A stretch of 63,991 bases of DNA, filler included, from Rhabdomonas costata (lineage: Eukaryota), in NCBI GenBank assembly GCA_019059605.1. It is 13 parts of 13 records of this genome, joined end to end, with 100 filler letters (N's around TTAATTAATTAA, not from the genome) between each part and the next. Parts side by side here need not be neighbours in the genome. Positions count along the whole stretch, not along the records: positions 4,988 to 9,862 come from JAHMHO010000131.1; 12 more parts are not named here. One strand, written 5' to 3'. This document shows positions 4,888-9,962 of this stretch, in pieces (the stretch's first letter is position 1; each line of letters begins with the position of its first letter). Under the pieces are notes generated by a model. It was not told the DNA's origin and made no database searches. It was given only the letters and a program-made list of their open reading frames with translations. Position numbers and translations under genes: made by a program.

Positions 4888-4987
4888 NNNNNNNNNNNNN
4901 NNNNNNNNNNNNNNNNNNNNNNNNNNNNNNNTTAATTAATTAANNNNNNNNNNNNNNNNNNNNNNNNNNNNNNNNNNNNNNNNNNNN
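4888..4987. other. Artificial contig spacer (44 N + TTAATTAATTAA + 44 N). Also at 9863, 14870, 19847, 25014, 30009, 34970, 39924, 44864, 49825, 54747 and 59678
   Basis: The same 100-nt six-frame-stop linker occurs 12 times. A separate 141-N gap without linker lies at 21347-21487. Confidence 0.99.
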
Positions 4988-5075
4988 GGGGTTGGGTTAT
5001 TGCCTTTAGTGTTTCAGAGTAGATGGTTTGGTGTTTCGAGGGGGGGCTCGAGGATCCTGCTTGCTTCACACTAAC

Positions 5076-8000
5076 CTGGATATCGGTGAACACGATGGTG
5101 ACTAGCCCGGTTGGTGCGTTATCCAGTAAGCGGCGGGCATGCTCCCGTCTTCGGCGGCCCAGCACAAGGCAGACTACAAACCCAACCTGTGCGCAAGAAA
5201 GGGCTTCGCATGGTTCGTCCCCGACCTCCTGAGTAGTGAATGCACGTGTAAGAACGAACACTGGGGTTCAGTAAACGGTAGGGCAGGCCAAACCTCAGAA
5301 ATTTCAATTTCTGGCAAATCCGAACTTGCCTCCGGGTCGATCAGCATCTAAATCTTGAAAGCTTGCAAACAGACACATGGGATGGGGGTGACAGAATTCC
5401 TCCCATCACAGCCCCACCATCACACCATCACAGCTAATCATGGGCTGCACAGTCCAATATCTAAGATTTGAGTGAAAACTAAGGTTTAAATTAAAAATAA
5501 AATTGAAATTAAACTTAAACGGATAGGAAAAGCCCAACAGAAAAGTACCGTTGCGAGGAGGAGGGGGGCAAGAAAGCAAAAGTCTCTCTCAAAAGAGGAA
5601 TACGGAATAAGCAATTGAATTTCTTGGAGTTTAATCAAAATTGAACAACAGCGCGAAACTCAGGGGACACCCATAAATTTCCCGTCATCCAAAAGTCGAT
5701 ACTGCATGAGGCATGAGGATCCATAAACCTTTACAGACGACATCCTCAACGTTCACAGGTCCGAAAGAACGAGCAGTAACTCACAAAGAGCAAAGAGCGT
5801 AAAAACCAGGCTCCCAAAACCAATCCCAGCACCCTATCCCAATAGAAAGTGTGTCTCACACACAATTGCACAACGTAAGCGCAACAAACCATTACAAGGC
5901 ATCCTCCGCCCACGCCCACCACGAGGGCTATGATGAGGCGGAAAGGAGACGGGTCTGTGGGATTGGAGTAGCACTGTGCAAGGCCGGGGGCTGTGTTGGA
6001 GGTCCCCGCAGGGCACGGCAGGCAGGCCAGGGACCCAGCCGCCCAGTAGGTGTTGATAGTGCAGTTCACCTGAGGTTCACGAAGTATGAACTGTACCCTT
6101 TGGGGCGGAACCCAAGGTAACCACCGTAACAAGCAGCGGTTGCAAGATCCTCCCTGACATATTGTGGGAGCGATTAAAAGCGGCAATTCGATCGTTTGCT
6201 CGACCTGTTCCCTGACCATATTCCGGTGCCCACATCCCACAGTGCTATATCTCAGCAGAGAGCCTTTTACCTGTATGGGGTGGTGTGACAACACCACTAC
6301 CACCAAAACCGTACACAGACTATGCAATATACACGCCGGGCCGTCACCCGGATCCAAGGATCACTGGGATCTACATTTCTCCGCTCACCCCATCGCTAAG
6401 TTAGCTCAATTGTCCGCCTTTCGATGGCTGCATCTTAAAGTTACCGCGGACACCACAGAACCCATGAAACCTATCAGAAAACCTCTCTTTACAGATCTAG
6501 TTTCGCCCAAAACTAGATATAATCACTCGAAATAAGAGTTTCGCCAAGCCTTACAAGCCTCAGCAGACCGGTGCGTAGAGACACCAGAAACGAACGAGGA
6601 ACCCCAACCTGAGTCTGGCGGACGATGAGCAACGGCGTGGTGCTTGAGGTGATGGTCAGGGTGCCCTGGAGAGTGGGACAGTCCAGTCCACGGCCATTGA
6701 TGACCTCCAGAGCAGCCATGTGAACCTCGTAGGGGGTCACAAACGCTGAGGTGCCCGGCACGAACTTAATGAACCCAAAGCCGTCTCCTCCCTTGCACAG
6801 GTAGGTAGTGGTAACCACCGTGTAGATTCTGCGAAGAAGAAGGTTATTGGGCATGAAAACAGATCGAATTTATATTACAACTTTAGAAAATTTTCAAGAA
6901 ATTTCGAAAACTATTTTGAACAGTGGCAAAAATGAGGCACCCCACCGCCTCAAAAAAACAATCAAAGGTCAGCCAGCAAAGTGTCGCTCACTGGTCAGTC
7001 CAATGCCTCTGAGCATCACTCCGCAAGTGAACAGAGCAACAAAGTAAAGCTACAGAACAGAGCTTCGGAGAGAAGCTTCTTCTTCTTCTGACTAAGACCA
7101 AAAATGCAGGGAACAGACGGCCACTGAGTTTGCGGGTCCGTGTGAAACCCTTCCTTGTCTCACTTTTGGAGACCCTCCTTGAACGCCTTGACAACAGTGC
7201 CATTCTCCGCCTGCTGGCTACTGACGGCTTGCCTTGTGTGTATGTGTGTGTGTCGTGGTTTAACCTTCAAGAAACTCAAGCAGCACTGCAGCGCACCTGT
7301 GCTGAAGGGCAGGACAATGGAAAACGGGGCATGGGTTTGGAAGAAAAGGATCTTGTTCAATTGGACCAGAAACAGAATCGGCCGCACGTGACGCTTTGCT
7401 ACATACTGTTGTCATGTGCACGGTTTGTTTCTACTTTCAGAGTTCCGTTTTTGGCTCTGTCCTTTACCTCGTGTGCGCGCTTGAGCGAGACGAAAGAGCT
7501 GCCACCACAGAAAAAGTGCAGCATCTTCCCTTCAGCGGGGAGGAGGGGGTGGGGGGAGGCGCATACCTTTCGCGTTGAAGTGACCCCCAGGTGCCAGTGA
7601 TCTTGTCAAAGACCTGGATCGCGGTGATCCGAGTCCCGTTGAGTTTGGGGTTGTAGTCAACCGCAGATTGTGAAGCTGCGGGAAAGCCCCTGTGCTGGGG
7701 GCGTACTGAACGGTCGGCGCCTATGCCCTCCCCCCTTACACAGACGCGCAAACAAAAAAAAAGGTCCGCAAGCAAGAAGGCAGGTCAGAAAGAATAGAGC
7801 TGCTAGAGACAGCTATCGTGCGTGTGAGCGGTTGGAGAACACCCCATTTCAGAATACACCATCCCAAACCTGTCGCTTGCAACGGCAGCAGGAATTCCAA
7901 GCCACTCATACAAACGCTAGACAGCTAGTTCAAGTCCTCAACGTTAGCGAATACCGACTGCTCGACCGACCCAGCTAAAGAATCCCAATTCCGTCTCCTC

Positions 8001-9338
8001 AAGCAATCCGGGAGCAAAGGGAAGGGAAGAAGCAAGAAAGGTACAAACCCCTTTCGACACGGCGTACACCAGAATGTCATACAGTTCGAATCCGTAGACT
8101 TGAAACGTGCACACGCTGTCTGTAAAGGGGTAACTCGCCCAGATGTTCGTCAGGTTTACATTTCCTGAACACAGGCATGCAAACTACAGGCAACACCAAT
8201 GAAGGAGAAAGGAGGATACTCACCCACACATCCGCAGGCAAGGAATCCCGCAGGTGACAGGAATACAACAACAGCGGTCCAGCCCAGCAGTCCAACTATG
8301 AATCAAGCAACCGCAGCACAGCAGACAGCCATTTTCTCCAGATGACAGAAAGGAAAGAAGGCAGCATAATAGCAGGAGGAATGTAAAAAAGATGCTAATG
8401 GTAAACACCAAGAAAAAGAACAGAAGATGCCTTCGGCACCGAACAGGGGGGCAGGGGGGCGATGAAATTATCAACCCTACTCATTAGAATCACAGGCGCT
8501 TAATACGAAGTACATTCCTGAGGGTTTGAGGAACCGTTGTAGCAAGGGGTCAGCGAAGGACACACGGTCAGCACAATGCAAGCTACTGTGCAAGACCCAC
8601 GCATTCCAGAAGAGAAAAACCTGCGGGCCAGCCTGCCGCGAAGGAGCCTCCGTTAATGAACGCCACGTCAGCGTTCATGAACGCGTATAAGGTGCCGGCC
8701 CACCACGTCCCGATTTCACACTCCTGCGTGAGAATGCGGATCGGTTGGGGTAGACATGAAGGGATTGATGGACATGAAGGGACAGGTTGCACTCTCGGCG
8801 CCTGTTCCCAACAGCTTTTCTCTATACTGCCTTGTCGTATGCTTAAACACAGAATCCCACTAGCTCGAATCGAACTTCGGCAAATTTCAGACCTCAGATC
8901 AGACGTGAAGCATTGGGAAGTGGATAGGGAGAAAAGGCGAAGGATGATAAGATCAGGTGGATTGCCTGAGCCATAGGTTCCGCGGTTCTCCCTCAATAAC
9001 AATCCAGCGCAGAAAAGGGAAGCGAGCATGAGGAAAGCGAACAACCCTGTGACGGCACGTGTAAATCTTGCGCACAGTGTCAGCGGCGACGGGCACAGCG
9101 TCGGTGCAGTACCCAACCGTAACATCGTTGGCGGCGGCAAGGAGGATCTGAGCCTGCATCCACTCCAGGTCGGAGTAGTACGTGGCGTCGTTGATTGGGG
9201 TAACGGAGAAGTTTACCGGTTGTGAGATGTCGATCTCCGTGAAGGTCAGGAAGCTCTGCTTTGCCCCCCACAAGTCCAGGTCAATGTCGACAAAGGAGAG
9301 GGAGTGTTGCAGCTTGGAGCGGATGGCCACACCCGTAC
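5076..9338 (-). CDS. Receptor-type adenylate cyclase with 5'-nucleotidase-like ectodomain (partial). Exons 9338-9046, 8723-8621, 8164-8049, 7705-7567, 6828-6609, 6069-5890, 5186-5076
   Basis: GT-AG exons give CRHRECEIG..ADVAFINGGS, YPFTD..G.ELYDIL, GAFPQ..VDYNP..TRI and YTVVTTTYLCKGGDGF (5'-nucleotidase C-terminal domain motifs). These are followed by Cys-rich CLPCPAGTS, a TM helix, RRRR and NAPTGLVTIVFTDIQ (start of a class III cyclase). Apparent 1-nt frameshift near 7661. Confidence 0.8.
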
Positions 9339-9962
9339 CTGACAATAGGTATTGGCGGTTGGGTTTCCAAATCCAAATCCGAATCCTAAAATGCGTCAGG
9401 CAGGCTCCGCTCCATAGAATACTGAAGGAGCCATTGCAGAGGTTCTTTGTCTCAAACAAACACCAGCACATTGTCACATTGACGATTGCAGCAAATTGCT
9501 ATTGACGAGACCCACCTCGCTCTTGTGCAGCAGGCCTAAGACCACGAATAAGAGCTATGTCAGGCCCCACTGTTTCCACCCAAGTCCCGCAGCGCTCCCG
9601 CTCGAAGAACCGCTTCGTAGCCGTCGGGGGGCGCCAGCTGCACATAACGAACCGCGGGCAGCACTACGACACTGCGCAGCCCCTGCCGCGCTTGCGGTGC
9701 CTACCACTGAAGCTGGTTGTCCATCCATTGGTGCCCCATCCAGCTCGGCCGCTTTCCGACCGCCCCTGTGCAACCTCAGCAAAACTCCTCCGTGGGAAAG
9801 GGCCCTGTCCTCCTTCTGACCTTCCTCTGACACCCGCGGACGGCATCCTCCCCCCCCAACAANNNNNNNNNNNNNNNNNNNNNNNNNNNNNNNNNNNNNN
9901 NNNNNNTTAATTAATTAANNNNNNNNNNNNNNNNNNNNNNNNNNNNNNNNNNNNNNNNNNNN

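Follow-up and report, generated by a model that had tools for sequence, protein, structure and literature searches.

The window analysed here, a 63,991-base stretch of DNA from Rhabdomonas costata, carries on the minus strand of one of its contigs (4988-9862) a fragment of a gene whose product, the 950-residue protein P0001 (source name RCo016032), is probably a receptor cyclase in which a pseudo-nucleotidase sensor is coupled to the synthesis of cyclic AMP (cAMP). With the same high confidence, held jointly for this explanation as a whole, we regard the contig as the middle part of a nuclear gene of this free-living euglenid or of an organism nearly identical to it, P0001 as a receptor-type adenylate cyclase of class III that crosses the membrane once with type I topology, and its family as spread over all three euglenozoan classes. 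In this reading, a receptor-type class III cyclase is joined to a previously undiscussed pseudoenzyme sensor.

Peptide pieces were located by stop-to-stop minus-strand open reading frames (ORFs) and three-frame translations. A word-indexed protein search with the last-exon ORF returned one protein, P0001, identical (100%) across the exonic part of the query and already annotated with PF00211 and PF02872. Exons were placed by tblastn of P0001 on the window, with E-values per exon from 2e-9 to 4e-55, followed by an exact exon model: seven exons on 9338-5076, separated by introns of 322-738 bases that are all GT..AG, encode residues 253-644 with an identity of 391/392, and the fragment lies wholly inside the contig. 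A sequence-only reading of this DNA had proposed seven exons over 5076..9338, which the exon model reproduces to the base, encoding 5'-nucleotidase C-terminal motifs, a short Cys-rich module, a transmembrane (TM) helix split by an intron, RRRR and NAPTGLVTIVFTDIQ. All of these elements were recovered. In P0001, Pfam assigns PF02872 to residues 340-491 (83.9 bits, cut-off 23.6), and the single-exon ORFs of exons 2, 3 and 5 match this family colinearly (12.5, 12.4 and 13.8 bits, each below the cut-off); four conserved cysteines lie in exon 6, whose ORF alone matches Ephrin_rec_like at E 0.011; intron 6 interrupts the TM helix between residues 607 and 608; and exon 7 carries both RRRR and NAPTGLVTIVFTDIQ. 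The exon 7 ORF alone gave no Pfam match.

That nucleotidase and cyclase belong to one gene, as the same reading had claimed, agrees with P0001 passing both Pfam cut-offs, PF00211 being assigned to residues 632-822 (91.7 bits, cut-off 21.9). Ephrin_rec_like stayed below its cut-off in P0001, PF00149 was not found even at E 0.1, and Pfam detected no periplasmic-binding-protein or ANF family. The RCo proteins were predicted from the transcriptome, the genome draft being described as unsuitable for gene prediction in the part of the source paper drawn on here (PMC8219788), and therefore one assembled transcript spans both halves of P0001. Both domains also occur in three paralogs of the same origin (identity 59-73%) and in a further ENA protein, which aligns over 82% of the query with 27% identity. 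When a profile was made from these five proteins and searched against 1.84 billion representatives, 53,511 matches reached E<=0.001, mostly via the cyclase domain; those of the best 150 matches whose best stretch begins in the ectodomain are the 44 relatives considered below. PF02872 and PF00211 occur together in 37 of the 44 and PF00149 in none, and several relatives are uninterrupted single ORFs on contigs of 163, 171, 864 and 906 kb.

An AlphaFold2 model of P0001 was built from a 45-row family alignment with a mean column identity of 19%, in which, as in the tree below, the relatives P0107 and P0115 are absent. The model reached a mean predicted local distance difference test score (pLDDT) of 82.2, mostly above 85 in the ectodomain. 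Its top Foldseek matches in the PDB were all whole 5'-nucleotidases, namely T. thermophilus 2Z1A, human CD73, NadN and UshA (E 7e-28 to 2e-23, about 555 columns), with target-normalised TM-scores of 0.62-0.68 against closed or intermediate forms versus 0.50-0.56 against open forms. Comparison by hhalign of 33 family ectodomains with six true 5'-nucleotidases, including E. coli UshA (K-12 record) and with P0227, P0228, P0230 and P0231 used as references, gave a probability of 100 and an E-value of 1.8e-61 over residues 1-534. Since both searches cover the whole 5'-nucleotidase length, both lobes and the connecting helix are present, and the predicted structure of the ectodomain comprises a complete two-lobed UshA/CD73-type 5'-nucleotidase fold with this helix. 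The most specific result of an ESM Atlas search with the ectodomain was a set of bacterial 5'-nucleotidase clusters at 0.89-0.90.

Residue retention was counted over the 45 family rows, using the roles of the residues in UshA and identities checked in the UshA sequence. The residues D41, H43, N116, H117, H217 and H252, metal ligands or catalytic in UshA, are each kept in 0/45 rows, and D84, a further metal ligand, in 34/45. A histidine within three columns was seen in 2, 7, 5 and 0 of the 45 rows, His-rich motifs were not seen nearby, and the metallophosphatase motifs were likewise absent from a separate MAFFT alignment. This pattern documents the loss of the dimetal catalytic centre, without which the ectodomain would be unable to hydrolyse nucleotides. 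The equivalents of F429 and F498, which stack on the base in UshA, are aromatic in all 45 rows (F397 and Y483 in P0001). For the phosphate-binding arginines, R410 is kept in 37/45, R379 in 22/45 and R375 in 18/45 rows; at the ribose contacts, D504 is kept in 27/45 and N431 in 32/45, with Asp at the latter position in 10 more. In the four Rhabdomonas paralogs, the equivalents of R379 and D504 are still there, whereas those of R410 and R375 are gone. The sequence-only reading had remarked on the replaced arginine of the NGG.IR motif, and in the NGGSFAA of exon 2 the R410 equivalent is indeed A378; this replacement is special to the four Rhabdomonas paralogs, and 37 of the 45 rows keep the arginine. 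Its idea of a repurposed nucleotidase fold is borne out by the metal ligands, which do not survive at six of the seven positions.

Between ectodomain and membrane, the cysteines C550, C563, C566 and C580 are kept in 45, 45, 45 and 42 of the 45 rows, and Ephrin_rec_like is matched at E<=0.001 in 7/44 relatives. P0001 has just two hydrophobic stretches, an N-terminal signal-like one and residues 588-617 (peak 588-601), with seven N-glycosylation sequons in the ectodomain and the RRRR after the TM helix on the cytosolic side. In the model, a single helix (591-629) runs straight into the cyclase via a helical linker of about 14 residues. The best solved matches of the cyclase domain are T. brucei GRESAG4.3 and 4.1 (PDB 1FX4 and 1FX2; E 1.1e-30 and 3e-29). 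Class III enzymes use two metal-binding Asp, a substrate Lys/Asp pair (in the ATP type), and a transition-state Asn and Arg, all on one chain in the homodimeric type. D642, K681 and D685 are kept in 38/38 rows, R741 in 37/38, D761 and N768 in 36/38 and R772 in 34/38; as far as conserved residues can tell, the cyclase domain is intact, with everything for a homodimeric, ATP-specific class III enzyme kept.

The closest known systems are the trypanosomatid ESAG4/GRESAG4 cyclases (PDB 1FX2, 1FX4), which resemble P0001 in being type I proteins whose large ectodomain is followed by a single TM helix and then by a class III catalytic domain. Shared features of the catalytic domain are the ..PTG.VT..FTDI.. 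start and, in a shorter version, the insert before the RVR strand; the juxtamembrane likeness to kinetoplastid cyclases claimed from the sequence is seen in the alignment with GRESAG4.3 and 4.1. By this analogy, the P0001 cyclase would be expected to need dimerisation of its catalytic domains. The trypanosomatid ectodomain, in contrast, consists of two Venus-flytrap (periplasmic-binding-protein) domains, as stated in the part of PMC6027212 drawn on here, whereas that of P0001 combines a 5'-nucleotidase fold with the four-Cys module. With the ecto-5'-nucleotidases (E. coli UshA, human CD73, T. thermophilus 2Z1A, H. influenzae NadN), P0001 shares the whole two-lobe fold, PF02872 and the stacking aromatics, and it also keeps the UshA R379 and D504 equivalents; unlike them, it lacks the dimetal site and any PF00149 match, is anchored by a TM helix and is fused to a cyclase, and its family has a GWPAG motif and extra conserved cysteines of its own. 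The same logic of a hinge-bending bilobed outer domain, a Cys-rich or linker spacer, a membrane segment and an effector is found in class C G-protein-coupled receptors (GPCRs) and receptor guanylyl cyclases. Their outer domain has the periplasmic-binding-protein fold and is not homologous to the metallophosphatase-derived fold of P0001, although the family member P0201 itself has the class C domain 7tm_3.

Organism names on the family members looked up (30 proteins, most from metagenome or assembly contigs) are all euglenozoan, with lineages checked for four of the species. They comprise Rhabdomonas costata, Euglena longa, E. gracilis and Entosiphon sulcatum among the Euglenida, Diplonema ambulator, Lacrimia lanifica and Namystynia karyoxenos among the Diplonemea, and Papus ankaliazontas and Apiculatamorpha spiralis among the Kinetoplastea (Prokinetoplastina). 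Because the family spans euglenids, diplonemids and Prokinetoplastina, it probably dates to the early Euglenozoa. The sequence-only reading had pointed to euglenids and diplonemids as places to look for this architecture, and both are among the named members of a family in which most relatives have it. Its contrast with kinetoplastid receptor cyclases stands for the trypanosomatid ectodomain and fails for Papus and Apiculatamorpha, which share the P0001 design. A quick maximum-likelihood tree, in which five bacterial 5'-nucleotidases served as outgroup to the 45 ectodomains, held the family together (Shimodaira-Hasegawa-like approximate likelihood ratio test, 100) and contained a diplonemid clade, a clade of Rhabdomonas and Entosiphon, a Prokinetoplastina clade and a large clade with Euglena longa. 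A word-indexed search with the family alignment found only the four Rhabdomonas paralogs and bacterial 5'-nucleotidases or cyclases, and no new members.

One member departs from the cyclase architecture in an informative way. P0201 (1072 residues, on Logan, JGI and ENA contigs of 11-28 kb) joins the family ectodomain, without the metal site, to the seven-transmembrane (7TM) domain of class C GPCRs (7tm_3, PF00003, 111 bits) and has no cyclase; its ectodomain is nested in the tree of the cyclase-bearing family, beside P0184 and P0186, which show no effector domain. Further members, P0114 (Entosiphon sulcatum, 1200 residues), P0139 and P0152 (Euglena gracilis EG_transcript_6279, 642 residues), have the family ectodomain and Ephrin_rec_like, three such modules in P0114, and no cyclase in the predicted protein; their transcripts may be truncated, or they may be receptors that lack an effector or use a different one. 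Conversely, P0006 (817 residues) and P0022 (1197 residues), both on ENA contigs, are cyclases near the P0001 catalytic domain with a PF02608 (Bmp) outer domain, P0022 also with Ephrin_rec_like. Since PF02608 is a family of purine-nucleoside-binding lipoproteins, this cyclase scaffold may repeatedly carry nucleoside-type sensors.

How such a receptor might work can be sketched from the fold. The lobes of 5'-nucleotidases are known to rotate widely as the enzymes open and close, and the PDB titles among the Foldseek matches name open, closed and intermediate forms. In this sketch, the dead nucleotidase would bend at its hinge like a clamshell and serve as the sensor, much as the Venus-flytrap domains do in class C GPCRs and trypanosomatid receptor cyclases: a base-containing ligand would, on binding, alter lobe closure or the pairing of ectodomains, the altered ectodomain would set the relative position of the two cytosolic cyclase domains, and these would have to pair as a head-to-tail homodimer for cAMP to be made. 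In trypanosomal receptor cyclases the catalytic domains do have to dimerise, a step for which control by the outer Venus-flytrap domains has been proposed, according to PMC6027212. The strongest indirect support for a sensor role comes from P0201, because there the same ectodomain, nested in the family, joins a 7TM domain. Because the Rhabdomonas clade keeps the ribose-binding Asp but only one of the three phosphate-binding arginines, its ligand would more likely be a nucleoside than a nucleotide. A further-reaching reading, which we hold to be less likely than not, is that Euglenozoa possess cell-surface receptors for purine nucleosides or nucleotides that are unrelated to P1, P2X and P2Y, in which a dead ecto-5'-nucleotidase reports lobe closure to adenylate cyclase and, in one branch, to a 7TM domain of class C type.

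Several observations weigh against the receptor explanation or against parts of it. Judging from the alignment, the phosphate and ribose positions differ between clades and no single ligand fits the whole family; the conserved aromatics could be kept for folding and not for ligand binding; and the N-lobe aligns to the true enzymes at about 14% identity, leaving single-column assignments there uncertain. The cyclase domain is cut off in the window after ~15 residues, and its remainder is known solely from the protein of one assembled transcript, P0001. Moreover, a base that the P0001 frame requires is missing from exon 4 between 7656 and 7655, and exon 1 holds the sole residue difference, G in the window against R276 in P0001, so that the contig copy could be a defective allele or an assembly error.

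Among other explanations, an ectodomain that binds no small molecule is unlikely, yet it deserves the most weight. It would then be a rigid scaffold, offer a surface for protein binding, or serve in dimerisation or adhesion, while stress or cytosolic inputs would regulate the cyclase, as suggested for some trypanosomal cyclases. This would suit the uneven retention of phosphate- and ribose-binding positions, and for trypanosomatid receptor cyclases the ligands are still unknown while activation by acid, osmotic and proteolytic stress is documented in sources including the part of PMC6027212 used here. It does not sit well with both base-stacking aromatics being kept in every row of a family whose columns are so poorly conserved, nor with the recruitment of the same module to the 7TM domain of a class C GPCR. 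In those receptors, the outer module is classically the ligand-binding one.

The frame break leads to a second alternative, rather improbable and compatible with the receptor cyclase itself, in which the one-base deletion in exon 4 is real, the window copy being a broken allele or paralog and the intact expressed copy lying elsewhere. By tblastn, exon 4 falls into two overlapping pieces in different frames, switching between ...HNLRLT and YNPKL..., and a single N placed at 7656/7655 restores the P0001 sequence. The P0001 frame is the correct one, because the paralogs and the wider family read alike, with a nearly invariant Q437. R276G also separates the contig from the transcript; this is possibly a homopolymer sequencing error or an allelic difference. 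Against a broken copy, everything else is identical, and the source paper did not consider the genomic assembly fit for gene prediction; for these two reasons, a broken allele is no more likely than an error of assembly or sequencing. Exon 4 as assembled, read from the acceptor of the transcript, gives a frameshifted product. The codon of residue 276 (window 9277-9279, minus strand) is GGG within a run of six G, the residue being Arg in P0001 and the three paralogs. Two other acceptors were tried and rejected: one 21 bases downstream in exon 4 (...HRGFPAASQSAVD...) keeps the frame open on the contig but differs from P0001 and the paralogs and loses Q437, and one for exon 7 at 5231 also leaves the frame open on the contig, but P0001 and the paralogs read otherwise.

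An active ecto-5'-nucleotidase, that is, a bifunctional enzyme hydrolysing AMP and making cAMP, would account for the clear PF02872 match and the whole fold, but with six of seven metal-ligand or catalytic positions kept in no row and PF00149 matched in neither P0001 nor any relative, we consider it highly improbable. The least credible explanation, an artificial fusion through chimeric transcript assembly or two adjacent genes, could appeal to the de novo transcriptome assembly behind P0001 and to the window ending 15 residues into the cyclase, but it can practically be dismissed, because four paralogs and 37 of the 44 relatives, including continuous ORFs in other organisms, have both domains, and the genomic contig itself joins the C-lobe, Cys module, TM helix and first cyclase strand via canonical introns in one frame.

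Full-text literature searches found no paper describing the joining of a 5'-nucleotidase to a cyclase in these organisms. A supplementary table of the E. gracilis genome paper gives 5_nucleotid_C and GCC2_GCC3 for EG_transcript_6279 in a cyclase orthogroup, without comment; the main text has 'nucleotidase' 0 times and gives NCIII, BLUF, NIT, P-loop NTPase, HAMP and Cache1 as cyclase domain compositions. Neither 'cyclase' nor 'nucleotidase' occurs in the main text of the R. costata paper (PMC8219788), and 'nucleotidase' occurs 0 times in three further papers checked, two of them reviews or analyses of trypanosomal receptor cyclases, PMC6027212 included. The family sequences are publicly available with automatic annotation, one JGI name reading 'class 3 adenylate cyclase/2',3'-cyclic-nucleotide 2'-phosphodiesterase (5'-nucleotidase ...'. 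Receptor-type adenylate cyclases are characteristic of trypanosomes and their kin, and the ligands of these enzymes are described as still unidentified in sources including the part of PMC6027212 used here. The nucleotidase pocket is understood at atomic level, and with its base clamp kept and its chemistry gone, it offers a concrete ligand hypothesis, nucleosides or nucleotides. If Euglenozoa do have such purine receptors, the family would be the first among euglenozoan receptor cyclases whose ligand class can be predicted, and a way into what the receptor cyclases of the phylum sense. The presence of the ectodomain on a GPCR membrane domain as well would make it a clear case of a pseudoenzyme turned modular sensor, and for the osmotroph Rhabdomonas, sensing dissolved breakdown products of nucleic acids would be a plausible chemosensory task.

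The features of the contig are given in Table 1. Exon 1 runs from the last part of the N-lobe through the inter-lobe helix (H303-321 in the model) into the beginning of the C-lobe, C346-R347 included.

Table 1. Parts of the receptor cyclase gene on contig 4988-9862, in the order of transcription (window positions; residues are those of P0001)
Feature	Position	Strand	Residues	Content
Partial upstream intron	9339..9862	-		Reaches contig end; AG acceptor 9340-9339 (...TTGTCAG before exon 1); exons for residues 1-252 outside window
Exon 1	9338-9046	-	253-349	tblastn E 3.9e-55
Exon 2	8723-8621	-	350-383	C351, NGGSFAA, family signature GWPAG; PF02872 profile 19-50
Exon 3	8164-8049	-	385-422	PFTD with F397 (= UshA F429), C402; PF02872 profile 54-87
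Exon 4	7720-7567	-	423-473	FPQ motif (Q437); one base short relative to P0001 frame
Exon 5	6828-6609	-	475-547	Y483, C485, GGDG (D489), C-lobe end; PF02872 profile 135-153; tblastn E 1.3e-40
Exon 6	6069-5890	-	548-607	Cys-rich module C550, C563, C566, C580 and first half of TM helix
Exon 7	5186-5076	-	608-644	Second half of TM helix, RRRR, juxtamembrane helix, first cyclase strand, D642 of FTDIQ
Start of next intron	4988..5075	-		GT donor 5075-5074; contig end 88 bases in; exons for residues 645-950 outside window

Residues 1-244 of P0001 had no significant tblastn match anywhere in the window, and the remainder of the protein was not found elsewhere in it either, the best other tblastn match (E 0.006) being a low-complexity stretch. 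The window is an artificial chain of separate, size-sorted contigs of about 4.85 kb. It contains 12 TTAATTAATTAA linkers within N runs, against 0 expected by chance, which lie at 4932, 9907, 14914, 19891, 25058, 30053, 35014, 39968, 44908, 49869, 54791 and 59722 and divide it into 14 stretches, of which 11 measure 4.82-4.91 kb. Since the parts are joined by filler, the stretches adjoining 4988-9862 give no genomic context. The N runs around the linkers lie, for example, at 4888-4987 and 9863-9962, and TTAATTAATTAA is a stop in all frames.

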